The notes under the pieces are model-generated. The model saw nothing but the letters and a program-made list of their open reading frames with translations. It did no database searches and had not been told where the DNA came from. The position numbers and the translations under genes are program-made. From assembly GCA_964482515.1 (NCBI GenBank), contig CAYZXT010000009.1, forward strand, positions 16,251-80,250: a DNA stretch of 64,000 nt, given 5' to 3'. This document shows, in pieces, positions 23,133-63,306 of this stretch. How positions within the stretch are numbered: position 1 is the first letter of the stretch; every line of letters begins with the position of its first letter. Source of the DNA: an uncultured Elusimicrobia bacterium. Its GTDB lineage: Bacteria > Elusimicrobiota > Elusimicrobia > FEN-1173.

Positions 23133-23140
23133 TAGGGATT

Positions 23141-25570: not shown

Positions 25571-25576
25571 GGGGGA

Positions 25577-26282: not shown

Positions 26283-26340
26283 CCTCCCAATCTTCATCCT
26301 CCCTCCCGCGGTTCTTCAGAATCAAAAAGTAACCTTTCCT
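26283..26340 (+). promoter_or_regulatory. Conserved ORF6N leader, copy C
   Basis: cttcctcccaatcttcatcctccctcccgcggttcttcagaatcaaaaagtaacctttcctgcgg. Confidence 0.5.
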
Positions 26341-26530: not shown

Positions 26531-26577
26531 CGAGTTCCCCTACTCCCTTGATAGTAAGTAGCTTATAAACTACACTT

Positions 26578-45651: not shown

Positions 45652-45689
45652 TGGAATTCTCCTTGTTCCCCCCGAGGGGATATGAAATA

Positions 45690-45915
45690 AAAAACCCACT
45701 TCCAACGCGGAAATGGGTAACGGAGAATCAAACGCCGTAGATGCCGGCGGCCTCCCTATAAATAGGAACAACGCTACCGGCGAGCCCTTCCCGCGAAGGA
45801 AAATCTACCTTTTAGTCGACCGGACTTAGACGCGTTTGCGCGCGCCCATTACCGTTGCGGGGCAGTCCCGGAATCACACCGGGTTCCTCTAAAAGGGAGT
45901 GAGCGAAAGAACTGG
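45690..45915 (-). ncRNA. Candidate cobalamin (AdoCbl) riboswitch in the 5' leader of the TonB-dependent receptor gene
   Basis: Reverse-strand RNA reads AGAGGAACCCGGUGUGAUUCCGGGACUGCCCCGCAACGGUAAUGGG (forward 45845-45890). This resembles the conserved Cbl-riboswitch core (GGAA.CCGGUG.GAAUCCGG.ACGGCCCCGC.ACUGUAA). It sits in a ~440-nt leader with AAGGAG 5 nt before the AUG. Confidence 0.5.
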
Positions 45916-46001
45916 CCTGAGTATGAGAAATTAATCGGCGGGTGTAAAGTAAAAATAATTGGAACTGTTTTGTGGATAGGGGCGTTCCCTTAATTTCAAG
46001 C

Positions 46002-47408: not shown

Positions 47409-50400
47409 GACTTTCCGACATATCCATCAAGAACCCCGTCTTCGCCTGGATGCTGATGATCGGCATGATCCTGTTCGGGATCATCGGCTTCACGCAGATC
47501 GGCAAGAGCATGCTGCCGGACGTGGATTTCCCGGTGCTCACCATCTCCACGAAATGGGAAGGCGCCTCGCCCGAGGTGATGGAGACGGAAGTGGTGGACA
47601 CGATCGAAGACTCCATGACGTCGGTGAAGGGCGTCAAGAAGATTTCGTCCGTCACCCGCCAGGGCCAGGCCATGATCACCATCGAGTTCGAGCTCAAGAC
47701 CGACGTGGACGTGGCGCTCCAGGAAGTGCAGAGCAAGATCTCCCAGACCCAGTACGAGCTTCCCAAGGACATGGACCCGCCGATCATCAGCAAGATCAAC
47801 CCCGACGACCAGCCGTTCATGTGGATCTCCCTCTCCGGCGACCGCCCGGTGCGGGACATGATGGAGTACGTCAACGACGACCTGAAGGACAAGTTCACCA
47901 CCATCCCGGGCGTGGGCGACATCTTCCTGGGCGGGTTCATCGAACCGTCCGTCCGCGTCTGGCTCGATCCGGAAAAGATGCGCCAGCGCGAGATCACCGT
48001 GGACGACGTCCTCGCCGCTCTGCGCAACGAGCACACCGAGCTTCCGGCGGGATATCTGGCCACCCAGGAAAAAGAATGGAACCTGCGGGTCATGGGCGAA
48101 GCCCAGAGCCTCGAAGATTTGGAGAACCTCATCATTTCGGACCGGAGCGGCCGGCCCATCTACACGCCGTTCCGCTTGAAGGACGTCGCGGAGATCGAGG
48201 ACGGGCTGTCCGATCCCCGCGGCATGTCGCGTGTCAACGCGCGCCCGGCGGTCGGGCTCGGGATCCTGAAACAGCGCAACGCGAACATGGTGGACGTGGG
48301 CACGCGGGTCAAGGCGCGGGTCGAGGAACTGCAAAGCACCCTGCCCAAGGGGATGATCCTGGCCGTCAACTACGACGGGACCAAGTTCGTCGAAGACTCG
48401 ACCGAGGAACTGAACTTCAACCTCATCCTGGCCGCGGTCCTCACGTCCCTCATCTGCTGGCTGTTCCTCGGGTCCTGGAGCTCGGCGGTCAACATCATCC
48501 TGGCGATCCCCACGTCGATCCTGGCGACCTTCATCGTCCTCTATTTCCTCGGCTACACGCAGAACACCTTCACGCTGCTCGGGCTGACGCTCGTCATCGG
48601 CATCGTGGTGGACGACGCCATCATGGTGCTGGAGAACATCGTGCGCCACCGCGAGGAGGGGGAGTCCCAGGTCCACGCCGCCCTCCTGGGCGCGCGGGAG
48701 ATCTATTTCCCGGCCATGGCCGCGTCCGTGGCCATCCTGGCGATCTTCGTGCCGGTGCTGTTCGTCAAAGGCGTGATCGGCAAATACTTCATGCAGTTCG
48801 GCGTCACGATCTCGGCGGCCGTCATGTTCTCGCTGCTGGAGGCGCTGACGCTGGCGCCCATGCGCTGCGCGCAGTTCCTGAAGGTCGGCGAGCACCGCGG
48901 GCCGTCGAAATGGGTGGACAACGCCGTGGAGTGGATGACCGTGAAGTACAAGCAGGTCCTGTCCTGGATATTCGATCCGGCCGCCGCCGGCCACGGGCCC
49001 CGGAACGTCCCGACGAAGACGTATTCGTTCTTCATGACGCTCGTCCTGGCCGCCATCGCCCTCGGCGCCGGTCTGGCGTTGAACGCCGGGATCTTCATGG
49101 CCGGGCTGAAACTTTTCCACGTCGAAAAACCGATGCCGTGGGCCGTGGGCCTGGCCGTGGCACACATGATGTTCTGGCCGGTCTTCGTTTCCTGGAGGCA
49201 CCATCGCTTCAGCCTCTGGAAGCCCTACTGGGGTTTCTTCACCGCGATCTATCGCCACATGACGGACCGCCCAGTCGTGATCGTGACCGCGGCATCGTTC
49301 ATCTTCCTCGCGTCGCTGTCGCTCTTCGGGGTCATTAAAAAGGAACTGATGCCGTCCCAGGACCAGAGCATGCTCCTGGTCTCGCTCGAAACGCCCGTGG
49401 GGTCGTCCCTCCAATTCACCGACGATACCTTCAAGAAAGCCGAGGACTACATCCTGAAGCGCGGCGAGGTGGAGCGCTACTACACGGCGGTGGGCGGTTT
49501 TGAGGGCGGAGAGATCAACTCCGGCATGATCTTCGTCACTTTGAAGCAGCCGAAGGAACGCCCGGTCCCGCAGGGGCGCAAGAAGCCGTTTTCCCAGTCG
49601 GAACTGATGGCCGAGTTCCGGCGCGACCTGGGCGCGATCCAGGGCGTTTCGAAGGCGTTGTTGATCGACCTTTCGCAGGGCGGCAATGACGCGGGCAGCG
49701 GTTTCCCCGTCGAGTTCACCCTTCAGGGGCGCGACTGGGGCCAGCTGGCCGACCTCAGCGAAAAGTTGCAGGAAAAGATGAAGGCGTCGGGCATGATGGT
49801 GGACGTGAACTCGAACTACAAGCTCGGCATGCCGGAGGTGCAGATCTGGCCCGACCGGCAGGAAGCCGCGCTCCGCGGCGTGAGCGTCGCCTCCATCGGC
49901 AACGCGGTGAACGCGACCCTGGGCGGCGTCCGCGCCGGAAAGTTTTCCAAGGGCGGCCACCGCAACGACATCCGCGTGCGCTTCAAGCCCGTCGACCGGA
50001 CGAAGAAGGAAGACATCGGCAAGATTTTGGTCCGGAACAACCGCGGCCAGGTCGTGCCGCTGCCTCAGGTCGTGAACGTGACCGAGAAGCAGAGCCTGCT
50101 CAGCATCACGCGGCAGAACCGTTCCCGCGCCATCACGCTCTACGCCAACGTCGCCCCGGGGAAATCCCAGGCCGAGGCACTGGCGGCGGTGAAGCAGATG
50201 GGGAAGGAGCTTCCCGAGGGCGTCCGGCTCGTCCCGTCGGGCGCGGCCGAGACGTTCCAGGAGGCCTTCGTGGGCCTCGTGTTCGCGCTGGTCCTGGGGG
50301 TCATCGTGGCCTACATGGTCCTGGGCGCGCAGTTCAACAGTTTCATCCACCCCGTTTTGGTTTTGATCGCCCTGCCCTTCAGCGTCACGGGCGCGGTTCT

Positions 50401-50821
50401 GGCCCTGGTGATCGGGAACCAGTCCCTCAACATGTTCAGCATGATCGGCCTCGTGCTTTTGATGGGCATCGTGAAGAAGAACTCCATTTTGCTGGTGGAC
50501 TTCACCAACGAGCGGCGGAAGAAAGGCCTTTCCGTCACGGACGCTTTGGTCGACGCCTGCCCGATCCGGCTGCGGCCCATCGTCATGACCTCCGTCGCGA
50601 CGATCTCCGCCGCCATACCGCCCGCCCTGGCGCTCGGCCCCGGCGCCGAGACCCGCGTGCCCATGGCGCTGGTGATCATCGGGGGCGTGGCCGTCTCCGC
50701 GTTCCTCACTCTCTTCGTCGTCCCCTGCGCCTACAGCCTCATGGCCCACCTGGAATCGCACAAACACGACAAGCAGCTGAAGGAAGCCCTACGCGAACTG
50801 GGCGAGCTCCCGCCCGCCTAG
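47405..50821 (+). CDS. RND-family efflux transporter (AcrB/HAE1-type inner membrane pump)
   Basis: 1138 aa with 12 TM helices and two large periplasmic loops. ATGA overlap with the upstream gene. GLVLLMGIVKKNSILLVDF is the conserved TM motif. Confidence 0.9.
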   Translation: MRLSDISIKNPVFAWMLMIGMILFGIIGFTQIGKSMLPDVDFPVLTISTKWEGASPEVMETEVVDTIEDSMTSVKGVKKISSVTRQGQAMITIEFELKTDVDVALQEVQSKISQTQYELPKDMDPPIISKINPDDQPFMWISLSGDRPVRDMMEYVNDDLKDKFTTIPGVGDIFLGGFIEPSVRVWLDPEKMRQREITVDDVLAALRNEHTELPAGYLATQEKEWNLRVMGEAQSLEDLENLIISDRSGRPIYTPFRLKDVAEIEDGLSDPRGMSRVNARPAVGLGILKQRNANMVDVGTRVKARVEELQSTLPKGMILAVNYDGTKFVEDSTEELNFNLILAAVLTSLICWLFLGSWSSAVNIILAIPTSILATFIVLYFLGYTQNTFTLLGLTLVIGIVVDDAIMVLENIVRHREEGESQVHAALLGAREIYFPAMAASVAILAIFVPVLFVKGVIGKYFMQFGVTISAAVMFSLLEALTLAPMRCAQFLKVGEHRGPSKWVDNAVEWMTVKYKQVLSWIFDPAAAGHGPRNVPTKTYSFFMTLVLAAIALGAGLALNAGIFMAGLKLFHVEKPMPWAVGLAVAHMMFWPVFVSWRHHRFSLWKPYWGFFTAIYRHMTDRPVVIVTAASFIFLASLSLFGVIKKELMPSQDQSMLLVSLETPVGSSLQFTDDTFKKAEDYILKRGEVERYYTAVGGFEGGEINSGMIFVTLKQPKERPVPQGRKKPFSQSELMAEFRRDLGAIQGVSKALLIDLSQGGNDAGSGFPVEFTLQGRDWGQLADLSEKLQEKMKASGMMVDVNSNYKLGMPEVQIWPDRQEAALRGVSVASIGNAVNATLGGVRAGKFSKGGHRNDIRVRFKPVDRTKKEDIGKILVRNNRGQVVPLPQVVNVTEKQSLLSITRQNRSRAITLYANVAPGKSQAEALAAVKQMGKELPEGVRLVPSGAAETFQEAFVGLVFALVLGVIVAYMVLGAQFNSFIHPVLVLIALPFSVTGAVLALVIGNQSLNMFSMIGLVLLMGIVKKNSILLVDFTNERRKKGLSVTDALVDACPIRLRPIVMTSVATISAAIPPALALGPGAETRVPMALVIIGGVAVSAFLTLFVVPCAYSLMAHLESHKHDKQLKEALRELGELPPA

Positions 50822-50934
50822 CCGGCTTCCCATCCATTACGGGCCGCGACGCCTTTCCGACGGAGGTTTGACATCGTCGACGGAAAGCTGTCTAATGTAC
50901 TGGACAAAGGTTCGACCTATTCGCCGACAAGAAC

Positions 50935-50971
50935 GCCCAGGGAGGTGGTTTGTCCTGGGTTTGTTTTATTT
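50935..50971 (+). terminator. Rho-independent terminator after the RND gene
   Basis: CCCAGGgaggtggtttgtCCTGGGtttgttttatttt. Confidence 0.55.
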
Positions 50972-51005
50972 TCAGGCGGCGGAACAATTTGATGCGGAGG
51001 AATGA

Positions 51006-52400
51006 ATGCGTCCCTTTCGGATGAGAAGTCTGCTCGACAGCCTGTTGTTTCTGGGGATCGCCACCGCCCTCAATTACGCCTGGCTGATCAACAACCCCGC
51101 TTTCCGCGATTGGCCCTGGCACCCGTACCTGATGATCATCGCCCTCATCGGTTTGTTCTACGGCTTCTGGGAAAGCCTCGCCTGTCTCTGCCTCTGCGCC
51201 CTGTTCTATACCACGCAGTTGACGGTCCTGGGCATGCCTCTGGAGGCGATCTTCGCCGGCCAGGACGCCCGGAACCTTTTCGCTTTCCTTCTGGCTTCTC
51301 TTTTCTTCGGCGAAACGGGCGAGCTTTACAGACGGAACATCGAAATGTCCCGCGAACGCGCCCTCGCGGCCGAGGCCGCGAAGAACAAAACCGCCGACGA
51401 GAACCAAAGCCTTTGGGAAGTCAACCGCGAGCTGCAGGAGCGCGTGCGTTTCATGGAGTCCCACCTGACCACGCTGCGGGAGACGTCGGACCGGCTTCAG
51501 TCGCTTGACGAGCGGAATGTCCTGGACGGCGCGCTGGAATTCCTGATGAAGATGACCGGGGCCGAGGGCGTGTCCCTGTATCTGCTGGACGGGAAGAACA
51601 ACGCTTTCTGGCGGCAGGCATCTATCGGCAAATCCCCTGAGCCGGCGAACCCGGTTTCCGTCCCCGCCGATGCGTTCCCGTTCAACCGGCTCATGCAGAA
51701 GCCGGCCGTCTATTCCGTGCGCGAAAAACCGGACCGCGCGGGCGGCGGGTCCGCATTGAGGTGGATGGCCGCCATGCCGCTGCTGCGGCGGGGCATGCCG
51801 GAAGGCGTCTTCTTCGTGGAGACCATGCCGCTCCTCCGTTTGACCGAGCAGCTTTTACAGGACATGGAAGCCGTTTCCGAGGTCGTCAACCGCTGCGTGG
51901 CCAACGCGCAGGTCTTCCAGGCTAAGACCGAGTCCGCCCCGGCGGGCGGCGTGCTTGTGTCCGGGGACCTGTTCCGCGATCTCGTCGATAAGGAACTGAT
52001 GCGGACCCGCCGCCATAAATCCGCGGCCAGCCTTTTGAGTTTCCGGATCAACGGTTACGAAGGCCTGCGCGAAAGGATGGGCGAGGACGTGGCGCGCTTC
52101 ATCCTCGACCGCGTCATTCAGATCGCCGGCAGGAACAAACGACAGACCGATGTGCTTTGCCACCTCGGCGCGGGACAATTTTCCATGCTCATGCCACACA
52201 CATCGCCGGACCAGATCCATCCCTTCATTTACCGGACGCGGGAAGAAACGGCCCAGCTCCCCCTGGACGGTTCATCCGAAGAGCGCGTCGGCCTTTCCTT
52301 CGGCGTCTACGGCCTGGACGAAAAAACCAGCGACGCCGTGGACGTCATCCAGGGCGCGGAGCGCATGCTGAAGGAATCCTTCGAAGGCGGGAACAACTAG
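51006..52400 (+). CDS. pelD: PelD-like membrane c-di-GMP receptor (TM, GAF, degenerate GGDEF)
   Basis: Four N-terminal TM helices, a coiled-coil, a GAF-like region, and a C-terminal GGDEF-like fold with GAGQF in place of GGDEF. It heads a cluster with PelF/PelG homologs. Confidence 0.5.
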   Translation: MRPFRMRSLLDSLLFLGIATALNYAWLINNPAFRDWPWHPYLMIIALIGLFYGFWESLACLCLCALFYTTQLTVLGMPLEAIFAGQDARNLFAFLLASLFFGETGELYRRNIEMSRERALAAEAAKNKTADENQSLWEVNRELQERVRFMESHLTTLRETSDRLQSLDERNVLDGALEFLMKMTGAEGVSLYLLDGKNNAFWRQASIGKSPEPANPVSVPADAFPFNRLMQKPAVYSVREKPDRAGGGSALRWMAAMPLLRRGMPEGVFFVETMPLLRLTEQLLQDMEAVSEVVNRCVANAQVFQAKTESAPAGGVLVSGDLFRDLVDKELMRTRRHKSAASLLSFRINGYEGLRERMGEDVARFILDRVIQIAGRNKRQTDVLCHLGAGQFSMLMPHTSPDQIHPFIYRTREETAQLPLDGSSEERVGLSFGVYGLDEKTSDAVDVIQGAERMLKESFEGGNN

Positions 52401-52415
52401 AAGGCCAATTCATCC

Positions 52416-53081
52416 ATGACGGCCCAAACCCCCACCCTTAAAACCCATAAAAAGATGGGATTGGACATCCTGCCCTACCGGATCCTCGTGCGGCACTGGA
52501 GCCCGAAAGAGCGCATGCGTTTGAACCAGGCGCTTTACGACAGCGGCCACGCCGAGGCGAGTCGGATCCTGCACGAATCCCTGGGCGCGCGGGAAGAGCC
52601 GGTCCGTCTGTTCGCGGCCCAGGCCCTGGAGTTCATCTCGACGCGGCGCTTCGCGGCCATCGAGTCCCTGCGCGCGGCGCTGCGCAAGACGCCGAACGAC
52701 GCGTCCCTTCGCCTGGAGATCGCCGACCGGTTGAAAGAGTACGCGGAGGAAGGCGTTTTCGTGGATTCGATCCGCCACCATTTTTTCCGCGAAGCCGCGG
52801 AGCATTTGTCTTTGGCCCTGGCGAAATCGCCGGAGGCGCCGGCTTTCCTGTTCCGGCTCGGAGAGCTCCATTTCCTTTTGGGCGAGAACGCGGCGGCCGC
52901 GGAACCGCTGGAAAAAATCCTCCCCGACGCCGATGAATATCCCCGGGCCCGCTGGCTGTTGGCGGAGATCGCGTTTAAAGAGGGTCGGATCGATGCTGTC
53001 CGGGCCGAATGCGCGCGGCTGTCCGGTTTCGCGATGCCGCCGGAGATCCATCGGGCGGTTCAGCATTGGAAGGCCCAATGA
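52416..53081 (+). CDS. TPR-repeat protein (PelE-like, or a PelB TPR part)
   Basis: 221 aa of TPR-like helical repeats. ATGA overlap with the next gene. Confidence 0.5.
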   Translation: MTAQTPTLKTHKKMGLDILPYRILVRHWSPKERMRLNQALYDSGHAEASRILHESLGAREEPVRLFAAQALEFISTRRFAAIESLRAALRKTPNDASLRLEIADRLKEYAEEGVFVDSIRHHFFREAAEHLSLALAKSPEAPAFLFRLGELHFLLGENAAAAEPLEKILPDADEYPRARWLLAEIAFKEGRIDAVRAECARLSGFAMPPEIHRAVQHWKAQ

Positions 53082-54298
53082 GCGGCTCCTTCGCCCGCCA
53101 ACGCCGCTGGATCGGTTTTTCCGCGTTCTTCGCCGCGAGCCTGCTGCTTCCCTGGTCCCTGCGCACGCTTTTCTCCCAGCCGTCCGGTCCGCTCGCGGAG
53201 CGGCGGGAATTCCCGCCCGAGCAACCCGTCTGGGGCGATCCTTCCGGCGACGCCGAATCCGTCCGCGCGCGAAATTTCGAAAACAATCTGGCCTGGGTCC
53301 GCGGCGGCACGACCGAGGTCCCGTACGATGGGATCATCGGTCCGCCGGGCGATGGGGCGGAGGATGGATCCGCCGATGCGTCCGGGGCGGCGGACCCCGC
53401 CGTCGCGGAAGTCCTCTCCCCGGGGATATACGCCGCCTACATGCGATCCTGGGACAGCCTGGACATCGTCCGCCGGCGCGACGAGCTGGGGATCTATATT
53501 TATCCGTCTCCCCGGACGCGCCTGGAAGCTTACGTCAGCCGCCACCGTTTCACCGACGACGCCGACGCGATCGAAGGGCACGGCGGCGGGCTGCGGGCGG
53601 CGCAGATCGTCGGCGACCGCGTCTTCCTGGAAGAGGGGATCGGCGTCAACGGCTACGACGGGATCCGCCGGTCGGTCGAAGGGTACGCGCGGGCCGGCTA
53701 TTCGCCGCGGGAAAACCTTTTCCTCAGTTTGGACGCGCGGGTGGAGGACGTGTGGGAGCGCCTGCCCAATATCCGCGACGGGCTCCGTTTGTGGAGCGTC
53801 TCTCCCTATCTGTATTTCTCCTTCCTGACGAACTATTGGGTTTCCGGCTATTGGTCCCTGGGGTATTTCAGCGACCACAACTTCCGCCAGGTGCTCGAGG
53901 GCGAGCTGGGGCGTTTCCTTTCGCGCAAGATCGGGCTCAGCGTTTCGGGCGGCGTGCAGACCTACCAGTTCCGCGAGCCGCGCGGCACCTATTGGACGCC
54001 GTCCTATTACCAATATCTTTTCGGCCGCGTGCGCCTGTCGAAGAATTTCGAAAGCGACATCTGGGAACGCCGCGCGCGGGAGAACTTCCCTCGCCGGATC
54101 GGCTACCTGGCCGAGTACACCGCGGGCACGACCGAAAACCGCGACTTCGACCAGACCCTCCGCGGCGGCCTCTCCTTCCGCCTGTTCGACCGTTGGATCC
54201 TGCGGGCCGAGGCCTACCATCTGAACGCCAACGCGCGGTTCACGTCGGACAACTATTATGAGAACCGCATCGACGGGAGGATCGATTTTGAGTTTTAG
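53078..54298 (+). CDS. Outer membrane beta-barrel protein (candidate PelB-porin-like exporter)
   Basis: Signal MSGSFARQRRWIGFSAFFAASLLLPWS. The C-terminal half is rich in Y/W/F and ends ...GRIDFEF. Confidence 0.45.
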   Translation: MSGSFARQRRWIGFSAFFAASLLLPWSLRTLFSQPSGPLAERREFPPEQPVWGDPSGDAESVRARNFENNLAWVRGGTTEVPYDGIIGPPGDGAEDGSADASGAADPAVAEVLSPGIYAAYMRSWDSLDIVRRRDELGIYIYPSPRTRLEAYVSRHRFTDDADAIEGHGGGLRAAQIVGDRVFLEEGIGVNGYDGIRRSVEGYARAGYSPRENLFLSLDARVEDVWERLPNIRDGLRLWSVSPYLYFSFLTNYWVSGYWSLGYFSDHNFRQVLEGELGRFLSRKIGLSVSGGVQTYQFREPRGTYWTPSYYQYLFGRVRLSKNFESDIWERRARENFPRRIGYLAEYTAGTTENRDFDQTLRGGLSFRLFDRWILRAEAYHLNANARFTSDNYYENRIDGRIDFEF

Positions 54299-54362
54299 AA
54301 ATCAGGGACTAAGAGAATTTTATCCGCTCCTGCTCCCTCTCCCTGGAGGGGAGAGGGTCGGG

Positions 54363-56531
54363 GTGAGGGGAGTCTTACGGGCGGTCCTTGGTATCGTATT
54401 GCTTGTCTCATTCTTAACCGCACGTGTCGACGCTTTTCCCTCCTCCCCCGACGGATGGCAGGAGATCAAGCGCCGCGTGCTCGTCCTCTACAAAAGCTCC
54501 GAAGGCGATCGTCCGGACTTCAACCGCGCCGCCGGATTGCTGGAGCAGCCCCTCGACAGCCTGGGCCTCGTGGCGGATTATTACGATATCGACGCCGGGT
54601 TCCCGTCGGAGGAAGCGATGTCGCCCTACCGCGGCGTGGTGACCTTCTTCAACGGTCCGTCGATGAAAAATCCGGAAGCCTACGCGGACTGGTTCGCCGG
54701 GCAGGTCCGCGCCGGCCGGCGCATGGTCGTCTTCGGCGATTACGGCGCGTTCACGGACCGCGGGACGGACCGCTTCATCGCGCACAAGGACGTCAACCGG
54801 GCCTTCGGCGCCCTCGGGCTGGAGTATGACGGCTTCTGGGAAGAGCGGACGGGGAACCTCGTGCTGCGGAGCGTCGACAACGAATTCATGGCCTTCGAAG
54901 AGCCCGTCCACGAGAAGGAGCTGAACGAATACATCCTGGTCCGTTCCCGGAACCCGGCCAACCGCGTTTTTCTCTCGGTCGCCCGCGCCGACATGGACGA
55001 CAGCGACAGCGCCTTGGCCGTGGCCACGCCCTGGGGCGGTTATGCCTTTTCGCCGCTCATGCTTTATGACTACCGTCAGGGCGACGTCGCCAAGCAGCGC
55101 TGGCATCTGGACCCCTACAAATTCCTCGCGGAAGCGCTCGGCCTCGGGGACGAGCCGCGGATGGACGCGGCGAGCCTGAACGGCCGCCGGCTGTGGATGG
55201 CGCAGGCGGACGGGGACGGGTTCACGACCTCCGCGCCGGCCAACCGGTTGGCGTCGGAGAACATTCTGGCGGTCCTGAAAAAATATTCGCTGCCCGTCAC
55301 GGCTTCCGTCATCACGGGCGAGCTGGAGGACAATCCCAGGGCCAGGGACGTGGCCCGCGCCGTGTTCGCGCTGCCGAACGCGGAACCGGCGAGCCATTCC
55401 GAGACGCACCCCGTGGATTGGCTGGCCGAGGGCGTCGATCTGAAAAAGGAAATCACGGGTTCCGTCGAAAAGATCGAGACGGACCTTTTGCCAGAGGAGA
55501 AAGAAGTCCGCGTCTTCGCTTGGACCGGCTGGTGTAATCCGGGGATTGAAGCCATGAAAACGGCCCAGGCCGCGGGTCTGGTCACCATGAACGGCCTGCA
55601 AACCACCAACGGGTTCGTGAACCGCTTCGACGCGCTTTATCCGTCCCGCACCTACCTTTCCCCGCTCGTCCGCCGGGTGGGGGATTTCATTCAGTTGAAC
55701 CACCGCGCCGTGAATGATTACGACCTTGCACGGGAATGGAAGAGCCCGGGCGAATACCGGCACATCATCGAGACTTTCCAGGGGACCGTCCGCAACCCGG
55801 AGATCCCCGTCCACGTTTATTTCCACTGGTACAGCGGGGCCGACGTCGCGTCGCTCGCCGCCTTGGACCGGGTATTCCGCTGGAGCGCTTCCCAGGAGAT
55901 CAGCCCCGTCTTCGTCTCGGACTATGCCGACATCGTGACGGACTTCCGTGGCGCGCGGATTTGGCGTTCCGGCCCGGGGCGGTTCATCGTCCGCAACAAC
56001 GGCCATTGCCGCACCGTGGTGTTTTCATCCACGACCTCCGCTGTCGACATGGAACGGTCCAGAGGCGTCCTGGGTTATGCGCCGCGCTTCGGCCAGCTGT
56101 ATGTTTTCCTGGACGAAGGCCGCGAGCATGAGATCGTTCTGACGGAAGAGGAAACGTCCGCTCCGCGCGTGGTATCGGCCTCGGGCTGGCTGGAGAATTG
56201 GAAAGTCGACGGCAGCCGTTATTCTTTCGACATGAGGGCCTACGGTCCGGCGACCGTGACGCTTGCAGGCTTGAACGGTTATTATACGGTGAGCGTCCGT
56301 CCCGAAAAGCGGGCCAAGTCCGTTTCCTATCAAAGGTTCACGCGTAAGACGGAGGACGGCCTTCTCGTTTTGGAATTTTCCGCCGCCGGGCTTTCGCACA
56401 TGACGGTGGAACCGACGGGCGCCGTTTATGCCATGGCGCAGGTGGCGAGCGTCCCCCTGGTGGCGGGGTTCACGTCGATCTACGCGTTTTGGTTTTTATG
56501 GCTGGCGAAGAAACGGCGGAGGGGCCTGTGA
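54363..56531 (+). CDS. Large secreted polysaccharide-deacetylase-like protein (CE4 / NodB-type motifs; PelA deacetylase-domain analog)
   Basis: GTG start with GGAGG upstream and signal VRGVLRAVLGIVLLVSFLTARVDA. QADGDGFTT resembles CE4 motif 1 (TFDDG). ASHSETHP matches CE4 motif 2 (H-S/T-x-x-H-P). The track ORF start at 54258 overlaps the previous gene. Confidence 0.45.
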   Translation: MRGVLRAVLGIVLLVSFLTARVDAFPSSPDGWQEIKRRVLVLYKSSEGDRPDFNRAAGLLEQPLDSLGLVADYYDIDAGFPSEEAMSPYRGVVTFFNGPSMKNPEAYADWFAGQVRAGRRMVVFGDYGAFTDRGTDRFIAHKDVNRAFGALGLEYDGFWEERTGNLVLRSVDNEFMAFEEPVHEKELNEYILVRSRNPANRVFLSVARADMDDSDSALAVATPWGGYAFSPLMLYDYRQGDVAKQRWHLDPYKFLAEALGLGDEPRMDAASLNGRRLWMAQADGDGFTTSAPANRLASENILAVLKKYSLPVTASVITGELEDNPRARDVARAVFALPNAEPASHSETHPVDWLAEGVDLKKEITGSVEKIETDLLPEEKEVRVFAWTGWCNPGIEAMKTAQAAGLVTMNGLQTTNGFVNRFDALYPSRTYLSPLVRRVGDFIQLNHRAVNDYDLAREWKSPGEYRHIIETFQGTVRNPEIPVHVYFHWYSGADVASLAALDRVFRWSASQEISPVFVSDYADIVTDFRGARIWRSGPGRFIVRNNGHCRTVVFSSTTSAVDMERSRGVLGYAPRFGQLYVFLDEGREHEIVLTEEETSAPRVVSASGWLENWKVDGSRYSFDMRAYGPATVTLAGLNGYYTVSVRPEKRAKSVSYQRFTRKTEDGLLVLEFSAAGLSHMTVEPTGAVYAMAQVASVPLVAGFTSIYAFWFLWLAKKRRRGL

Positions 56532-57943
56532 GGAAAAAGATTTGCTTGATCCTGGAGGGGACCTATCCCTACGTGCGCGGCGGCGTGGGCATGTGGGCCC
56601 ACGACCTGATCCGCCGCTCGCCGCAGCATGACTTCACGGTCGTGGCCGTGACGGATTCGCCCAAGGGTCCGCGGGATGTCCTCTACGAGCTTCCGCCCTA
56701 CGTGCTTGACGTCGTCACAGTGAACCTGAACAAAAAGCTGCCTTCGACCTTGACGGCGACGGCCGCCCCGCGCACTTCCGACAGCGGGCGCTTGGCCCTC
56801 GGCATCGTGGAGACGCTCAAGGAAATGGAAGCGGGCGATTTCAGCGGGCTGGAACGCCTCGTCCAGGAGTGCGACCGGACGACCTTCGCGTTCGCGGACC
56901 TCCTTTTCAACGAAGCGCTCTGGAAGCAATTCGTCGGATACGCTTCACGGCTGGACGGGGAAAACCCCTTCGCGGGATTGTTCTGGACCTGGCAGGTCCT
57001 CTTCGAGACCACGGCGCGGCTGCTGCGCGCGCCCATTCCGGAGGCGGACGTCTACCACAGTGCGTCGACGGGCTACGCGGGGCTGCTCGCCTGCCTGGCG
57101 AAGGTCCGGACCGGCAAGCCCTTCGTCCTTTCCGAGCACGGGCTCTATCTCCAGGAGCGCCAGATGGAACTGGCTTTCCACGGCGTCCTGCGCGGCGCCC
57201 AACGGGAGTTCGTCGAAGGATTTTTCTCCGGCGTGAGCCGCTGGTGCTACGGGCTGGCGGACGAGATCACCTCGCTCTGCGGACCGATCCGCGAGCACCA
57301 GATTTCCCTCGGCGCGGCCCCCGCGAAGACGTTCATCGTCCCCAACGGGATCAACGTGCAGCGCTTCGCTTCCCTGCCGCGCGTCGCGCACGAAGGTTTC
57401 CACATCGGCTTGGTGGGCCGGGTGGCGCCGGTGAAGGACGTGAAGCTGCTCATCTTCGCGGCCAAGGAGCTTTTGTCGCGGATCCCGGAGCTGCGCGTTT
57501 CCATCGCGGGCCCCTCCGCGGACCCCGGCTATTTCCGCGAATGCCAGGAACTGGTTGCGCGGCTCGGCTTGGAGCGCGTGGTGCGCTTCCTGGGTTTCGT
57601 CGACGCGGCGCGGCTCTATCCGGAGCTGGACATGCTGGTGCTCTGCAGCCTGAAGGAAGTGCAGCCCCTGGCCGTTTTGGAAGCCATGGCCGCGCGCATC
57701 CCGGTGGTGGCGACCCAGAGCGGCGGCATTCCGGAGATCCTGGGCGGCATCGGCGCGCTCGTGCCGCCCCGGAACCTGGACGCGCTGGTGAAAACCATCC
57801 GGCGCGTGTACGAGGACAAGGCGATGCGCGAGGTGATGGTGCGCCTGGGCTTCGAGCGGGTCTCCTCGACCTACGCGCACGAAAAAAGTTTGGACCAGTT
57901 CCACCGTTTCTACGCGGCGACGGAACCCGTGGTCCGGGGATAA
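56528..57943 (+). CDS. pelF: PelF-like GT4 glycosyltransferase (N-terminal DUF3492 domain)
   Basis: KKICLILEGTYPYVRGGVGMWAHDLIRRSP resembles the PelF/DUF3492 N-terminus. The C-terminal GT4 region is GFVDAARLYPELDMLVLCSLKEVQPLAVLEAMAARIPVVATQSGGIPEIL. GTG start overlapping the upstream TGA. Confidence 0.7.
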   Translation: MRKKICLILEGTYPYVRGGVGMWAHDLIRRSPQHDFTVVAVTDSPKGPRDVLYELPPYVLDVVTVNLNKKLPSTLTATAAPRTSDSGRLALGIVETLKEMEAGDFSGLERLVQECDRTTFAFADLLFNEALWKQFVGYASRLDGENPFAGLFWTWQVLFETTARLLRAPIPEADVYHSASTGYAGLLACLAKVRTGKPFVLSEHGLYLQERQMELAFHGVLRGAQREFVEGFFSGVSRWCYGLADEITSLCGPIREHQISLGAAPAKTFIVPNGINVQRFASLPRVAHEGFHIGLVGRVAPVKDVKLLIFAAKELLSRIPELRVSIAGPSADPGYFRECQELVARLGLERVVRFLGFVDAARLYPELDMLVLCSLKEVQPLAVLEAMAARIPVVATQSGGIPEILGGIGALVPPRNLDALVKTIRRVYEDKAMREVMVRLGFERVSSTYAHEKSLDQFHRFYAATEPVVRG

Positions 57944-57952
57944 GGGGACACC

Positions 57953-59383
57953 ATGGCGGGCGTCGGCATCGAACTGCAGGCATCGTTCCTGAAGCGGCGG
58001 AGTTATCTCCGACTCCTGAAAATTTTCGGCTACGCCACCTCTCTGGCCGGCGGGCCGTGGCTGGTGGCCAGCATCACGGTGGCGCTGCTCTGCGTCTTCG
58101 GGATCAAGCAATATTCCTGGCATGAGATGACGCTCTTCGCCGTGGTCGTGATGTACGCCTTCGCGGGCTCGGTCCTCTTCGTCAGTCCCTTCGCCCTTTC
58201 CTTCGGGCGCTACCTGGCGGACCAGACCTTCGTCGGGCGGCTGAACCAGCGGCGGATGTTCCTGCTGCTCGAGGCCGTGATCGTGCCGCTCGCGGCGGTG
58301 ACGGGGTACTTCGCGGCGCGGCATTTCCTGCCGGACAGCGTGGTCCACGCCAGCGCTTACCGCCTCCTGGCCGCGGCGCTCTTCACGTTTCTCGCGGGGC
58401 TTTGGCCGGTGATGACCTACCTTGATTTCCGGCGTCGGCTGTCGCATCCGATGATCGCCTTCGTGGCCGGATCGCTTGCCGCCCTGGCGAGCTCCTGGTG
58501 GTTCCGGCGATACCTCGACTCCACCGGCTACATGGCCGGGTTCACGTTGGGCATGGGCCTGATCTACGCCGCGCTTTTCTTTTCCGCGCTTCACCGCCCG
58601 GTGGGAGCCGCCCGCGATCTGAAAGCCGAAAAACCTTATCTCGAGGCGGCGCGGCCCAAGTTCGCGGCCCTGATCCTCATCGGCGTCTTCTACAACCTCG
58701 GCATCTGGATGGATAAGTTCGTGATCTGGTCCACGCGCGGGACCGTCGTGTGGCCCGAGAGCCCGCTGCGCGTCCTGCACGTCTACGACATCGCCACCTT
58801 CATGGCCTACCTGCTCCTGATCCCGGGCATCGCCTATTTCCTCCTGGTGGTGGAATCTTCCTTCTACGAAAAATTCCGCGAATACCTCGCCGGCCTGGAG
58901 AGCGATCCCTATCATGAGGTCGAGGAAAAGCGGGCCGGCCTGGTGCGCGGCTTGTTCCGCCAGGCGGCGTACCTCGCCGAACTGCAGGCCATCCTAACGG
59001 TGATCGCGTTTTTCATCGGGCCCGCGCTCTTCCGCACGCTCGGATTACCCGCGGAGGGCGTCCCGATCTACCGCGTGCTCATCTGGGCCGCGTCGTTCCA
59101 GGTGATGTTGTGGATGGGGATCCTCCTGTTGCTTTATTTCGAGTTCCGGCGCGAGGCGTTGCTCGCGGCGGTCGGTTTTTGTTTCGCCAACACCGTTTTG
59201 ACATATGCCAGTCTGAATTCTCCCGGCTGGGTTTTAGGCTGGGGGTACGCGTTGTCTGCGCTGGCCGCCGGCGTCTTCAGCCTATGGGCGCTGCACGTAC
59301 GTCTTAAGGACCTCCACCGGCATATTTTCCGGCTGCACTTCGTGGAGCCCCCGCCGGTCCTCGATGAGAGCGCGCAAGGCTAA
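57953..59383 (+). CDS. pelG: PelG-like polysaccharide exporter (PST/MATE-like, 12 TM)
   Basis: MAGVGIELQASFLKRRSYLRLLKIFGYATSLAGGPWLVAS closely parallels the PelG N-terminus. 476 aa, polytopic. Confidence 0.65.
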   Translation: MAGVGIELQASFLKRRSYLRLLKIFGYATSLAGGPWLVASITVALLCVFGIKQYSWHEMTLFAVVVMYAFAGSVLFVSPFALSFGRYLADQTFVGRLNQRRMFLLLEAVIVPLAAVTGYFAARHFLPDSVVHASAYRLLAAALFTFLAGLWPVMTYLDFRRRLSHPMIAFVAGSLAALASSWWFRRYLDSTGYMAGFTLGMGLIYAALFFSALHRPVGAARDLKAEKPYLEAARPKFAALILIGVFYNLGIWMDKFVIWSTRGTVVWPESPLRVLHVYDIATFMAYLLLIPGIAYFLLVVESSFYEKFREYLAGLESDPYHEVEEKRAGLVRGLFRQAAYLAELQAILTVIAFFIGPALFRTLGLPAEGVPIYRVLIWAASFQVMLWMGILLLLYFEFRREALLAAVGFCFANTVLTYASLNSPGWVLGWGYALSALAAGVFSLWALHVRLKDLHRHIFRLHFVEPPPVLDESAQG

Positions 59384-60314
59384 ACTCGCCGCGGCGTTCC
59401 TGTTTTGCGCTTCGCACCTCGCGGCGGCGCATCCGGCCGCCTCAACTCCTACCCAAAACGCCCCGTCCGACAAACCGGGACCACGACTAGCGTCGACGGC
59501 CTTCGCCTGTTATTACGGCTACGGCCGCCTCGAGGAACTGAAAAATTACCGCCTCGTCGTCCTCCAGCCCTCCGCCTATAATCCGTCCGATATCGCCGCG
59601 CTCAAAGAAGCGGGCGTCACCGTGCTCGCGTACATTTCCCTCGGCGAGGACGAGGAGCTGCGCCGCGGCAACGGGCGCGGCCCCGGCGGCTGGGCGGATT
59701 GGTATCTGGACGAGTTCAAGGGGGCCGGGTTCGCGTACCCGGGCCCGGACGGACAGCCGGACAAGCACGCCGCCTGGGGCTCCTACTACGTGGACCCATC
59801 CCGTTCCGGTTGGAGGAAGCGCGCGCTTCAATCGGCCGAACGATTTAAATCCGTATTTGGGTTCGACGGTCTTTTCTTGGACACGATGCTTCTCCCGCGG
59901 GACGCCTTCCGCGAAAAGACCGAGCGGCGGATGGACAAGGGAATGAAGCGCCTGCTGGCGGAGCTGCGGCGGGATTGGCCCGGCGGATACTTTTTGGGGA
60001 ACAATGCCTGGGAGTTTTTAGAACAGGAGAAGTTGCTCAACGGCGTCATGCTGGAGAGCGCCCTGGGGGAAGACCCCTCCGGCTTCCAAAAGATCGGCCG
60101 TCTGGTCAAAGAGGTTCAGCAATTGAGGCCCTTGGACGCGTTCCTCCTGGAAACAATTTCTCCCGGAGCGGGGGCGAAGGCGGACGCCGTCTGCGCGACT
60201 GCCGATCTCCTGGGTTTTTCGGCCGCCCTCTACTCAGACGACGAGGCAGGCCGGTCGCTGACTGTTTTTCCGTGGAAGACGTGCGGCCCGGGTCCATCCG
60301 CGTTAAAGCGGTGA
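59364..60314 (+). CDS. GH114-like glycoside hydrolase (PelA hydrolase-domain analog), secreted
   Basis: Signal peptide, then FACYYGYGRLEELKNYRLVVLQP...DIAALKEAGVTVLAYISLGEDEE, a TIM-barrel GH114-type pattern. Overlaps the pelG end by 20 nt. Confidence 0.5.
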   Translation: MRARKAKLAAAFLFCASHLAAAHPAASTPTQNAPSDKPGPRLASTAFACYYGYGRLEELKNYRLVVLQPSAYNPSDIAALKEAGVTVLAYISLGEDEELRRGNGRGPGGWADWYLDEFKGAGFAYPGPDGQPDKHAAWGSYYVDPSRSGWRKRALQSAERFKSVFGFDGLFLDTMLLPRDAFREKTERRMDKGMKRLLAELRRDWPGGYFLGNNAWEFLEQEKLLNGVMLESALGEDPSGFQKIGRLVKEVQQLRPLDAFLLETISPGAGAKADAVCATADLLGFSAALYSDDEAGRSLTVFPWKTCGPGPSALKR

Positions 60315-60434: not shown

Positions 60435-61088
60435 GTGTTGTTTCCTATGAGAGGAATTGTGGACATTTCTGACATAAAAGACGTCTCCGATAAGCAGTTA
60501 GTGGCCGAGGCTCAAAACGGCCAAGAGAGAGCTTTTAGCCGTTTGCAGCAAAGATATCAGGCATCGCTCTTCATTATGGTTTTTCGCCATCTCGGACATC
60601 GGGAAGAGGCGGAAGACGTCGTACAACAGTCCTTCTTGAAAGCCTATCAGCACATCAACGATTTCCGCGGCGAATCTAAATTTTATACATGGCTGTACAC
60701 CATCGCGTTGAACCTTAGCCGCAACCACATACGCCAGCGCCACAGCCGCCGGACGGTTTCTTTGGACGATATGAGTTCCCAGTATGACGGTCCTCCGCCT
60801 CAGTGGATCGAAAAAGGGCCTACTCCGGAAGAGGAAGCCGACCGCCATGCCGACCTTGAAGCCATCCGGGATTCCTTGGAGTGTTTGGGGGAGGAGCAAA
60901 GGACGATCTTCGTTTGGCATTATTTCCAGCAGCTTTCGTTGGATGAGGTCGCCCGGCGCCTCGGCCGTCCCGTGGGGACCGTCAAGGTCTATCTCCATCG
61001 GGCCCGTAAGACAATTTATAAGGCCTTGACCGGCAATGGAGGGAACAAGAAATTTAAAAGCATTCTGTTTGTTGAAAGGACATCTTAG
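60435..61088 (+). CDS. ECF-type sigma-70 family sigma factor
   Basis: Region 2 FLKAYQHINDFRGESKFYTWLYTIALNLSRNHIR. Region 4 EEQRTIFVWHYFQQLSLDEVARRLGRPVGTVKVYLHRARKTIY. Confidence 0.8.
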   Translation: MLFPMRGIVDISDIKDVSDKQLVAEAQNGQERAFSRLQQRYQASLFIMVFRHLGHREEAEDVVQQSFLKAYQHINDFRGESKFYTWLYTIALNLSRNHIRQRHSRRTVSLDDMSSQYDGPPPQWIEKGPTPEEEADRHADLEAIRDSLECLGEEQRTIFVWHYFQQLSLDEVARRLGRPVGTVKVYLHRARKTIYKALTGNGGNKKFKSILFVERTS

Positions 61089-61153
61089 TCCCATAGATGT
61101 AATTTTATCGTCGCAGGCGTGTCGAATAAACGGGTTTCAAGGAGCGTATTCGG

Positions 61154-61306
61154 ATGAGTCGAGTCTGGATCATAAGTTTCCTCGCCCTGATCGCCGTCTT
61201 TTTGCCGGTATGGTCGTACAGCCAGAATTGGGGTTATCAGGCCAGCGCCGGTATCGGAGCAATTTTTCTTATCTTCCTGCTCTTGAACAAGTTTCACGTT
61301 ATATGA
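61154..61306 (+). CDS. DUF3309-family small membrane protein (50 aa)
   Basis: MSRVWIISFLALIAVFLPVWSYSQNWGYQASAGIGAIFLIFLLLNKFHVI matches the DUF3309 pattern (P.W.YS..WGY...G..G). AAGGAG SD. Not in the track. Confidence 0.5.
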   Translation: MSRVWIISFLALIAVFLPVWSYSQNWGYQASAGIGAIFLIFLLLNKFHVI

Positions 61307-61326
61307 CGCTATTTTAGGACGATATC

Positions 61327-63306
61327 ATGAATGGACTTTCTCCCCTAACCGAACGGCCAAGCAACCCGATCTCCTCCCCGCTGCTTCAAAAAAGCCTTTC
61401 CGGGTTTTTATTGAAGCCCATCCTGCGATCCGCGGCGCTGTCGAACCGTTTGACCACGACCGGAAGCTCTCTGGCCGTGGGCGTGAGCGTCGCTGTTCTG
61501 ATCGGGCATGCTTTGCCGACGTATTGGCAAACGTTCATCTGGTGGATAGGCCGGCCGACGGTTTTGTCCTCGATAGCTTTCATCCTTCTTGGCTTAACGC
61601 TTATTCTTGAGAATAAGCGGTTGGTTCGGCGTGATTTTTTGCTCGTCGGCGTGGGGACCTTCGTCAGCGGTTTTGTTTTTCTGCATCCATGGCTCAGGAC
61701 GTTGGCTCAAAACGGGTCGCTGCCGGGCTGGGAAAAATATTTTTACCCTGGAGCGTTGACCTACAAACTCGCTGAAAGCTATTTTTCCGTCGCGGCCCTT
61801 TTCCTGTTCGGCCTTTGTCTGGCGCTTTGCCGCATGGTCACGCGTCGCCATACCCGGTTGGGGGACTACATGGGCGCGGTGCTTGTGTGCCTCGGCATGA
61901 TCCATACCCTTTTCTTCCTTGGGTATTTATACGGAAAGCCGTCCTTCATCGGGGGGAATTTAGTGGCGCCGCCTTTTCCAAGCGTGTTATCGACGGGCTT
62001 CTTGACTTTGGCCCTCTTGGGGCGGCTCGGCCCGGGCTATTTCCCCATGCGGCCTATGGTGGGCCCCACCATCCCCGCCGTTCTTCTCCGTAAGTTTCTT
62101 CCCGTCACGCTGGCCGCGGTCCTCATATACTCGTTTTCCCGGGAAAGCCTTTTGGTGTTTCTGTCTCCCGCTGTCGCCACGTTCATCACTCTGCTTCTTT
62201 CCCTGATGATCGTTGTTTTCCTCGTGATGAAGTCTTCCGCCGTTCTAAGCGCCGAGCTTGGGGACGCGTTGAAGGAAACGGAGCAAAGGTTCAGGCATTT
62301 GGTCAGCAGCCTGAAAGATCACGGCATGTCGTTGACGGACCAGTACGGGCAGATCCTTTTGTGGAACGTCGGAGCGGAGCGATTGACGGGATACGACGCT
62401 TCCGAAGTCGTGGGGGAACAGCTTACCCGCCTGTTGCGGAGCCCGGGCCACGCGCTGGAAAGCGCGCTGGCGCGCGCCCGGGAAAATAAAAGCTCGATGA
62501 TCCAAAGCTGGATCGAACGGAACGACGGAACGTTGTTTTGGGCGGAAATCATGATCAGCGCCTTGCCAGACGAGGAGGGGCAAACGCAGGCGTACTCCGT
62601 GGTGATCCGTGATTTTACGGAGCGGAAAAAAGCGGACGAGAAGCTTCAGGCGTCGTTGCGCGAGAAAGAAGCCATGCTCAAGGAAATACACCACCGCGTC
62701 AAAAACAACCTGCAGGTGATCTCCAGCCTGCTGCGCCTGCAGTCGGAAAAAGCCCACGATAAGGAAACATTGGCGCTTTTCCAGGACAGCCAGGAGCGCG
62801 TCCGGTCCATGGCCATGGTCCACGAATATCTCTATCAGTCCAACGATCTGGCCAGGATCGATTTTCGGGGATATGTCACCAGTTTGGTCCGAAATCTGTG
62901 CCGCTCCTACGGGTATACAACGGTCGATGATAGGTTTCAGATCCATGTCGATGAGGCGCTATTGAATTTGGACATCGCGGTTCCCTGCGGACTCATTTTG
63001 ACTGAATTGGTTTCCAACGCTTTGAAGTATGCGTATTCAAGCGATAAGCAAGGCCCGATCCGTGTGAGCTTCCGCAACATATCGGACAACGCCTATGAGT
63101 TGACGGTGGCGGACGAAGGCGTTGGTTTGCCGAAAGAATTCGACATGGAAAACGCTTCATCCCTGGGCTTGCGGTTGGTCCACATCCTGACGGAGCAGTT
63201 GCATGGCCAGATACGGCTGGGAACCGGCAATGGGACGAAATTTATCATCTCGTTCAAGAGACCTGAGGAAAACATTGAGAGTCTTGGAGGAAATAAAAAT
63301 GCCTGA
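61327..63306 (+). CDS. Membrane sensor histidine kinase (TM region, PAS, HisKA_2/HWE-type dimerisation domain, HATPase)
   Basis: 8 or more TM helices, a PAS region, an H-box EIHHRVKNNLQVISSLLRLQ, and an ATPase region with the ELVSNALKYA N-box and GLGL G-box. Confidence 0.75.
   Translation: MNGLSPLTERPSNPISSPLLQKSLSGFLLKPILRSAALSNRLTTTGSSLAVGVSVAVLIGHALPTYWQTFIWWIGRPTVLSSIAFILLGLTLILENKRLVRRDFLLVGVGTFVSGFVFLHPWLRTLAQNGSLPGWEKYFYPGALTYKLAESYFSVAALFLFGLCLALCRMVTRRHTRLGDYMGAVLVCLGMIHTLFFLGYLYGKPSFIGGNLVAPPFPSVLSTGFLTLALLGRLGPGYFPMRPMVGPTIPAVLLRKFLPVTLAAVLIYSFSRESLLVFLSPAVATFITLLLSLMIVVFLVMKSSAVLSAELGDALKETEQRFRHLVSSLKDHGMSLTDQYGQILLWNVGAERLTGYDASEVVGEQLTRLLRSPGHALESALARARENKSSMIQSWIERNDGTLFWAEIMISALPDEEGQTQAYSVVIRDFTERKKADEKLQASLREKEAMLKEIHHRVKNNLQVISSLLRLQSEKAHDKETLALFQDSQERVRSMAMVHEYLYQSNDLARIDFRGYVTSLVRNLCRSYGYTTVDDRFQIHVDEALLNLDIAVPCGLILTELVSNALKYAYSSDKQGPIRVSFRNISDNAYELTVADEGVGLPKEFDMENASSLGLRLVHILTEQLHGQIRLGTGNGTKFIISFKRPEENIESLGGNKNA

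Follow-up and report, generated by a model that had tools for sequence, protein, structure and literature searches.

A probable Pel-type exopolysaccharide operon with a stand-alone outer-membrane barrel and a two-gene PelA in an uncultured Elusimicrobia bacterium

We identified a seven-gene locus in an uncultured Elusimicrobia bacterium which is most probably a cyclic di-guanosine monophosphate (c-di-GMP)-gated, synthase-dependent operon for a Pel-type exopolysaccharide (EPS), rich in N-acetylgalactosamine (GalNAc) or galactosamine (GalN), with a variant layout and in a diderm host. The locus lies at positions 51006-60314 (+ strand) of the 64,000-nucleotide stretch of contig CAYZXT010000009.1 that was analyzed (hereafter the window). 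Its most interesting aspect is an apparent export of the polymer without a periplasmic tetratricopeptide repeat (TPR) scaffold and without PelC, via a porin of a rare family. Pel is among the most widespread biofilm polysaccharides, and its passage through periplasm and outer membrane is not yet fully understood: a structure of PelBC became available only in 2025, and in Pseudomonas aeruginosa both PelC and the interaction between the PelB TPR domain and PelA are considered essential. A conserved diderm lineage that does without PelC and the PelB TPR domain would define the minimal needs for Pel export, and would be a natural test of which canonical parts are dispensable, with PelA tethered to the inner membrane and a porin unrelated in sequence to PelB.

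The locus consists of seven head-to-tail open reading frames (ORFs) on the same strand, tightly packed and all with high third-position GC. The genes, in the order pelD, pelE-like, porin, pelA (deacetylase), pelF, pelG, pelA (hydrolase), and the putative ligand-binding site in the first of them are as follows:

51006-52400, + strand: pelD-like gene (464 amino acids), with N-terminal transmembrane (TM) helices, a coiled-coil linker, a GAF domain and a degenerate GGDEF domain
52140-52181, + strand: I-site and degenerate active site of the PelD-like protein (R379-Q-T-D382, five residues, then G388-A-G-Q-F392)
52416-53081, + strand: pelE-like gene (221 amino acids), soluble HEAT/TPR-like protein homologous to the C-terminal domain of PelE
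53078-54298, + strand: stand-alone outer-membrane porin (406 amino acids), with signal peptide, linker, predicted barrel and C-terminal Phe
54363-56531, + strand: pelA_DA, deacetylase (722 amino acids from GTG 54363; the longest ORF runs from ATG 54258)
56528-57943, + strand: pelF (471 amino acids), GT4 glycosyltransferase with an N-terminal DUF3492 domain
57953-59383, + strand: pelG (476 amino acids), polytopic inner-membrane protein
59364-60314, + strand: pelA_H, GH166/GH114-like hydrolase (316 amino acids) with signal peptide

Judged from their junctions, the seven genes are translationally coupled or almost so. The pelD-like and pelE-like genes are separated by 15 nt and pelF and pelG by 9 nt; the pelE-like and porin genes share an ATGA overlap (53078-53081), pelA_DA and pelF a GTGA overlap (56528-56531), and pelG and pelA_H overlap by 20 nt. 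Alternative ORF starts exist for the fourth gene (54258 or 54363) and for pelF (56489 or 56528). For the GTG starts at 54363 and 56528 we followed the public annotation of metagenomic contigs with identical sequence (Logan SRR14787577/8 and the 91-kb NCBI contig).

An initial annotation, made from the DNA letters alone, had described the locus as Pel-like. In profile searches PelF and PelG were assigned, far over the curated cut-offs, to Pel families and not to generic GT4 or flippase families. The described arrangement is far beyond chance, and the Pel-like reading of the locus is supported. PelF matched the NCBIfam equivalog NF038011 with 276.4 bits (cut-off 100) and DUF3492 (PF11997) with 208.6 bits, is 31% identical over its full length to PelF of Caballeronia and of Cetobacterium, and is predicted to be the polymerase. 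A PelF search of the genome contigs returned only L001 and L002, both unrelated GT4 loci. PelG matched PF16933 with 298.1 bits (cut-off 29) over profile positions 1-452 of 452, contains about 12 hydrophobic segments and shares 29% identity with its Caballeronia counterpart; we predict that it exports the polymer across the inner membrane.

The first gene encodes a PelD-like protein in which Pfam recognized a GGDEF domain (46.6 bits) and a GAF_3 domain (27.6 bits), in agreement with the TM-GAF-degenerate GGDEF organization that had been read from it. Hydrophobic segments were found within residues 9-79 at the thresholds used, and a further one near residues 89-103 was judged by eye. In an hhalign comparison with a canonical profile, built from four PelD proteins of proteobacterial megaplasmids, it scored 90.8% (E 1.2e-6) across 348 columns, the TM region among them, and the hidden Markov model (HMM) of its family matched Cetobacterium PelD with an E value of 4e-23. 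Plain sequence searches from the protein reached neither the solved PelD chains nor Pfam PelD_GGDEF, which makes its relationship to canonical PelD a remote one. The initial annotation saw no RxxD I-site and left c-di-GMP dependence uncertain; this doubt has no basis in the sequence, because R379-Q-T-D382 stands at the canonical position and is conserved. The motif aligns with RQSD...GGEEF of the diguanylate cyclase 3IGN, and together with a second arginine, R410 (52233-52235), 28 residues after D382, it aligns with the R-x-x-D and downstream R of canonical PelD. Three orthologues, only 37-38% identical, all retain R379, D382 and R410. The sequence GAGQF stands where GG(D/E)EF is expected, and the orthologues have GNGRL or GSGRF. 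Since none of these motifs holds the catalytic acidic residues, a role as active diguanylate cyclase was rejected and the GGDEF domain is considered catalytically dead. We predict that the protein is a c-di-GMP receptor.

The two functions of canonical PelA are encoded by separate genes on either side of pelFG. This split, part of the earlier description, is borne out because the deacetylase and the hydrolase gene each match solved PelA. PelA_DA has a signal peptide and three domains, of alpha/beta, esterase and beta-rich type; at the C-terminus a TM anchor precedes the sequence KKRRRGL. A phmmer search aligned it with residues ~256-872 of the Pseudomonas thermotolerans PelA chain (9CGY, E 4e-40), and PelA was the only solved structure to match at E<=1; hhalign with canonical PelA gave 100% over columns 297-930. 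As these matches cover only the later part of PelA, PelA_DA corresponds to PelA minus its N-terminal hydrolase domain. Residues D283, D285, H345, H349 and H488 are invariant in five homologues; the equivalents in P. aeruginosa PelA (PaPelA; D528, D530, H600, H604 and H761) are the catalytic base, the metal triad and the catalytic acid (PMC12022489). The gene had been labelled a CE4-type deacetylase. The deacetylase part of this label stands, but the family name is loose: the product is a three-domain PelA-type enzyme, and PelA-type deacetylases are termed CE21 enzymes (PMC12022489).

PelA_H matched the crystal structure of the hydrolase domain (5TCB) in phmmer with an E value of 2.3e-11 and canonical PelA 47-217 in hhalign with 98.4%. 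Its description as GH114-like holds as far as the PelA hydrolase match is concerned, and falls just short in Pfam itself (GH114, 26.4 bits; cut-off 27). The catalytic carboxylates D160 and E218 of PaPelA have invariant counterparts in D173 and E231. We predict a periplasmic enzyme that resembles endo-alpha-1,4-N-acetylgalactosaminidases.

The C-terminal TM segment and basic tail of PelA_DA were found in 3/3 loci of the porin type and in 0/4 PelA relatives outside that architecture. Of these four anchor-less relatives, two (P0004 and P0006) are encoded beside large TPR proteins and one (P0005) is a fused hydrolase-deacetylase; the fourth is P0007. This distribution suggests that the anchor may replace docking of PelA on the PelB TPR domain. 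The locus which encodes P0006 (L008, 4913-17063) is yet another pel-like architecture, in which the PelA_DA gene is followed by genes for two large TPR proteins, a response regulator, two unknown proteins, a 647-amino acid HEAT protein and PelF.

The second gene had been taken for the TPR part of PelB, split off from its porin. Such a fission of PelB, in which a periplasmic TPR protein (52416-53081) and the porin (53078-54298) would act jointly, could be read from the ATGA overlap of the two genes and from the TPR/HEAT Pfam matches in the 221-amino acid protein; split PelB proteins have been described from aquatic thermophiles (PMC7112194), and in the AlgK/AlgE pair, too, TPR protein and porin are separate. 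The protein is a PelE homologue, as far as its sequence indicates: its family aligned with canonical PelE (an alignment of four PelE proteins) with 97.3% in hhalign (E 1.7e-11), collinearly over 188 columns (query 31-223 against template 141-334), but with only 4% with canonical PelB and its long TPR array, a comparison made as a control for repeat-driven false matches. A tblastn search of the whole window with Caballeronia PelE gave its best match inside the same gene (E 0.017), and the gene lies directly after pelD, as pelE does in proteobacterial and Gram-positive operons. None of five orthologues has a signal peptide or a hydrophobic or TM segment, whereas the four canonical PelE proteins have about three N-terminal hydrophobic segments. 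The protein should thus stay in the cytoplasm and cannot be a periplasmic scaffold, and we consider fission of PelB highly improbable. By sequence the product is the soluble domain of a PelE homologue without membrane anchor rather than a split-off PelB TPR domain, and no periplasmic TPR scaffold is predicted to be encoded in the locus. Reviews disagree on whether the PelE repeat domain is cytoplasmic; an anchor-less soluble PelE supports a cytoplasmic role.

The third gene encodes the barrel for which the initial annotation had suggested structure prediction, and the predicted structure contains 16 strands. The AlphaFold2 model comprises a short helix between strands 7 and 8 and has a pLDDT of ~85 over residues 112-406, which form the barrel after an acidic, disordered linker of ~80 amino acids. 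In Foldseek searches of the PDB with this model the three best-matching proteins were PgaA (4Y25, E 1.4e-12, TM-score 0.74 by target), PelB in PelBC (9H80_M, E 2.2e-10, root-mean-square deviation (rmsd) 4.2 Å) and BcsC (6TZK/9B8A). PelB, PgaA and BcsC are the known 16-stranded exporters of synthase-dependent polysaccharides. Matches with an rmsd of 4.2-5.6 Å were all EPS porins (ranks 1-3, 5 and 7), whereas other barrels exceeded 8.8 Å; AlgE appeared at rank 27 only. In the porin family the helix between strands 7 and 8 carries a near-invariant WERL motif with an invariant R228. The Plug-I helix of PelB is located between the same strands (PMC12141448), a parallel that is suggestive only. The family is very rare: word-indexed homologue searches with the porin, alone or as profile, gave nothing useful, and an exhaustive search of the representatives found six relatives only among 1.84 billion cluster representatives.

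The absence of pelC, part of the same description, was confirmed for the window. Caballeronia PelC in tblastn gave a best E value of 0.15, in an unrelated gene, so a pelC elsewhere in the 64 kb was rejected, and no lipoprotein gene was found in the operon here or in those of L005, L007 and L016.

The full seven-gene order recurs on an NCBI metagenome-assembled genome contig (L005; also L006) and on an ENA contig (L007), and PelA_DA is 44-46% identical to its counterparts in the L005 and L007 lineages. On two shorter contigs (L015 and L016) a PelD-like or GGDEF gene, a PelE-like gene, the barrel gene and a next gene follow in the same sequence; the product of this last gene gives a weak deacetylase-like match in L016, and in L015 the ORF is truncated and has no assignment. 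The architecture is thus found in at least four other divergent metagenomic lineages (L005/L006, L007, L015 and L016) at 30-46% protein identity, and the porin gene occupies the same position in five lineages. The most distant porin relative (P0013, 321 amino acids) is encoded on L014 (1-4455), where its neighbors are genes for a KaiC-like ATPase/REC/degenerate-GGDEF protein on one side and for a processive GT2 synthase, followed by a 63-amino acid ORF, on the other. Possibly L014 is a small EPS locus of the synthase-dependent kind, not described so far, that has a TPR-less porin of its own. As P0013 adjoins a GT2 synthase, the porin family appears tied to polysaccharide synthases more generally, and it could be a modular TPR-less exporter common to different synthase-dependent polysaccharide systems.

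A gene for a DUF2914 protein was observed near several of these loci: in the window at 36481-37581 (+), ~14 kb upstream of the pel locus, in L005 within ~1 kb downstream of it (15934-17016) and in L007 directly after it (9234-10349). A loose association of DUF2914 with pel function is possible.

The window also encodes TolC-like, RND, TonB-dependent receptor and OmpA-family proteins, from which we infer a diderm host. For the Gram-positive pel type a monoderm host without outer-membrane export component would be expected; here outer-membrane proteins are encoded in the window and a predicted outer-membrane barrel in the locus itself.

In such an envelope the locus could operate as follows. c-di-GMP would bind the I-site (R379/D382/R410) of the dead GGDEF domain in membrane-bound PelD, and PelD, the soluble cytoplasmic PelE-like adaptor and PelG would recruit and activate the GT4 polymerase PelF. 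The chain would be moved across the inner membrane by PelG and partly de-N-acetylated in the periplasm by the PelA-type deacetylase, which its C-terminal TM anchor would keep at the inner membrane, a position not dependent on contact with a PelB TPR domain. Export would occur via the stand-alone 16-stranded porin with the PgaA/PelB/BcsC fold, with neither a TPR domain nor a PelC ring, and the separate secreted PelA-type hydrolase may trim or regulate the polymer.

A number of observations weigh against this interpretation, and two other explanations draw on them. One group concerns the porin. Its AlphaFold2 model was built on a 7-sequence alignment, and single-sequence AlphaFold gave a pLDDT of only 36. 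No Pfam, NCBIfam or PDB sequence match was found for the 406-amino acid protein, a profile search of the PDB gave nothing at E<=10, hhalign with PelB gave a non-significant 1.5-2.6%, and sequence homology to PelB, PgaA or BcsC was not detectable. By a crude count 16 acidic and 14 basic residues face the lumen, with no clear anionic bias like that of PelB. Since all sequence-level tests were negative, the PelB-like assignment rests on predicted structure and synteny, and the porin is inferred to be a PelB-like exporter by role, not demonstrably a member of the PelB family. Moreover, the proposed scheme gives no account of how the polymer crosses the periplasm without a TPR scaffold. The barrel might serve as a general porin, or be some unrelated outer-membrane protein located in the operon by coincidence, with the polymer leaving by another way or staying periplasmic or cell-bound. 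The lack of sequence homology to any known EPS porin, the structural likeness of beta-barrels among each other and the unbiased lumen would all fit this explanation. We nevertheless regard it as quite unlikely, as the gene is translationally coupled and has kept its position in the five divergent lineages, the Foldseek ranking separates EPS porins from other barrels, the distant family member again adjoins a polysaccharide synthase, and a family this rare is unlike general porins.

The other group of unfavorable observations bears on the sugar. No gene for a UDP-GalNAc 4-epimerase (galE) was found next to the locus, and PelA_DA of the window has Q281 (codon 55203-55205) at the position of PaPelA H526, where all four aligned homologues have His; H526 is proposed to position the catalytic base (PMC12022489). 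The Pel-like machinery might make a non-Pel polymer, for example a different amino-sugar glycan, and the missing galE would agree with this, as would identities of only 26-31% to characterized Pel proteins; the caution that divergent pel operons may make different polymers has been published (PMC7112194). There is a minor but real chance that this is the case. Against it, PelF scores over the NCBIfam equivalog threshold and both PelA-type enzymes keep the catalytic residues of GalNAc-specific enzymes. A Bacillus cereus locus whose PelDEFG homologues are about as divergent, with 19-33% sequence similarity to those of P. aeruginosa (PMC13254593), makes a Pel-like polymer (PMC7112168). A Pel-type operon thus remains the interpretation we favor for the locus.

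Within it, we tentatively propose, as an idea with a somewhat less than even chance of being right, that the locus represents a minimal diderm Pel system in which export across the outer membrane takes place without periplasmic TPR scaffold or PelC ring. The rare stand-alone 16-stranded porin family would provide the exit, the tail-anchored PelA_DA would take over the PelA-positioning role of the PelB TPR domain, and PelE would be reduced to a soluble cytoplasmic adaptor. Family-based annotation misses or mislabels a locus of this kind, in which the porin, PelD and PelE are without specific family matches.

Two elements precede the operon, in the 184-nt gap between an RND gene and pelD:

50869-50897, + strand: candidate sigma-70-like promoter, TTGACA, 17 nt, TCTAAT
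~50938-50975, + strand: hairpin (CCCAGG...CCTGGG) with U-run, between the candidate promoter and the pelD start

The first element was read directly from the sequence and is a possible operon promoter, put forward with low confidence; it was absent from the listing of a consensus promoter scan because position 2 of its -10 hexamer is C. The hairpin could either end transcription of the RND unit or act as an attenuator for the pel genes. Folding of the pelD leader was no more stable than that of shuffled sequence (z 0.36), an Rfam search of the leader gave no match and hence no c-di-GMP riboswitch, and a consensus promoter and terminator scan within the operon gave nothing over background. Upstream of this gap, at 46089-50821 (+), a TolC-like gene overlaps an RND permease gene, with no membrane-fusion-protein gene evident beside the pair; the permease has 1138 amino acids against ~1020 in the Pfam model and was matched in two stretches. 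Downstream of the locus, in DNA of lower GC, lie genes for an ECF sigma factor and a PAS histidine kinase (60435-63306). They were rejected as members of the operon because they are not conserved beside the L005 or L007 locus and because GC falls there.

Several other features were noted in the window. A cobalamin riboswitch (RF00174, 32.7 bits against a gathering threshold of 31.5) at 45762-45922 (-) stands directly upstream of a TonB-dependent receptor gene (43729-45771, -), and the two look like a BtuB-like B12 uptake unit. A low-GC island at ~19000-27000 (0.45-0.57 against ~0.62 elsewhere) is probably a mobile defense island; it contains a restriction-modification enzyme of the MmeI family that is complete, with each of the five MmeI domains (19191-21977, +), and small genes that look toxin-antitoxin-like or phage-related. 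Tandem paralogues at 12891-14150 (-) and 14165-15475 (-) combine a signal-like N-terminus with a Peptidase_S74 (endosialidase chaperone) domain at the C-terminus, a domain which occurs in phage tail fibres and some surface fibres, and are followed by a gene for a 310-amino acid secreted protein without family match. No tRNA genes were found in the 64 kb.

Rearranged pelA and pelB fission (PMC7112194) as well as Gram-positive pel operons (PMC7112168, PMC7890745) have already been described, and the locus was compared with these and other known systems. With the P. aeruginosa-type pelABCDEFG operon, for which Caballeronia (L009), Paraburkholderia (L010), Azonexus (L011) and Cupriavidus (L013) served as canonical examples, it shares homologous PelD, PelF and PelG proteins and the soluble domain of PelE, the I-site in PelD, proteobacterial-type esterase and hydrolase modules of PelA with the same catalytic residues, and the predicted 16-stranded barrel fold of the outer-membrane exporter. 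It differs in that PelA is encoded by two genes flanking pelFG, PelC is absent, PelE has no membrane segments and PelA_DA has a C-terminal TM anchor. The porin has no sequence similarity to PelB and, whereas PelB consists of a periplasmic TPR domain fused to a 16-stranded porin, only the barrel fold is predicted here. The order is D-E-porin-A_DA-F-G-A_H here and A-B-C-D-E-F-G there. Two proteobacterial plasmids carry related variations. In Paraburkholderia graminis (pPHS1_P, L010 14415-18268) a canonical pelABCDEFG operon precedes an additional, separate endo-alpha-1,4-polygalactosaminidase gene and then galE and glmS, so a hydrolase gene after pelG is not unique to the clade of the window. 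On an Azospirillum oryzae plasmid (L012, 449-3684) PelA appears as overlapping ORFs for hydrolase (449-1408) and deacetylase (1069-3684), which reflects a true gene split or else a frameshift in the database entry.

Among exporters, the porin resembles PgaA, BcsC and PelB in predicted fold, strand number, aromatic C-terminal residue and the helix between strands 7 and 8 (as the PelB Plug-I), but it is a stand-alone barrel with an acidic disordered linker, whereas those porins are fused to long periplasmic TPR domains. The alginate porin AlgE is likewise encoded by its own gene without fused TPR domain; it has 18 strands and the periplasmic TPR partner AlgK, whereas no exported TPR partner is encoded here.

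The Gram-positive locus of B. cereus ATCC 10987, pelDEA(DA)FG with pelA(H), shares the core order D, E, A_DA, F, G, a monofunctional and membrane-tethered PelA_DA, a separate PelA_H at the edge of the locus, the absence of the PelB TPR domain and of PelC, and a PelD with an RxxD I-site (Whitfield et al. 2020, PMC7112168). In the window the host is diderm, a porin gene separates pelE from pelA_DA, the PelA_DA anchor is C-terminal instead of N-terminal and the PelE-like protein lacks a TM segment. The esterase is most like proteobacterial PelA, whereas the B. cereus PelA_DA founded CE26 (PMC13254593).

A diderm with a Gram-positive-type pel locus is also represented by Cetobacterium somerae (Fusobacteriota) on plasmid p1 (L017). 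Here the order differs (3785-13019): PelA_H, a GAF-only PelD of 403 amino acids, a DUF2194 PelA_DA, a 292-amino acid membrane protein, PelF and an unusually long PelG of 703 amino acids. Its PelD is the closest annotated relative of the window PelD, although shorter, and its DUF2194-type PelA_DA was not detected by the HMM of the window family. After pelG follows a 305-amino acid signal-peptide protein ending in ...CGFEYVF, which is unlike the barrel family of the window and may be a stand-alone outer-membrane barrel, an independent answer to the same export problem. The affinities of the modules in the window are mosaic: PelD (TM and GAF regions) is nearer to the Cetobacterium type, PelA_DA and PelA_H are nearer to proteobacterial PelA, and PelF and PelG are about equidistant between the two. 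The locus could be an evolutionary intermediate between the monoderm and the proteobacterial pel architectures.

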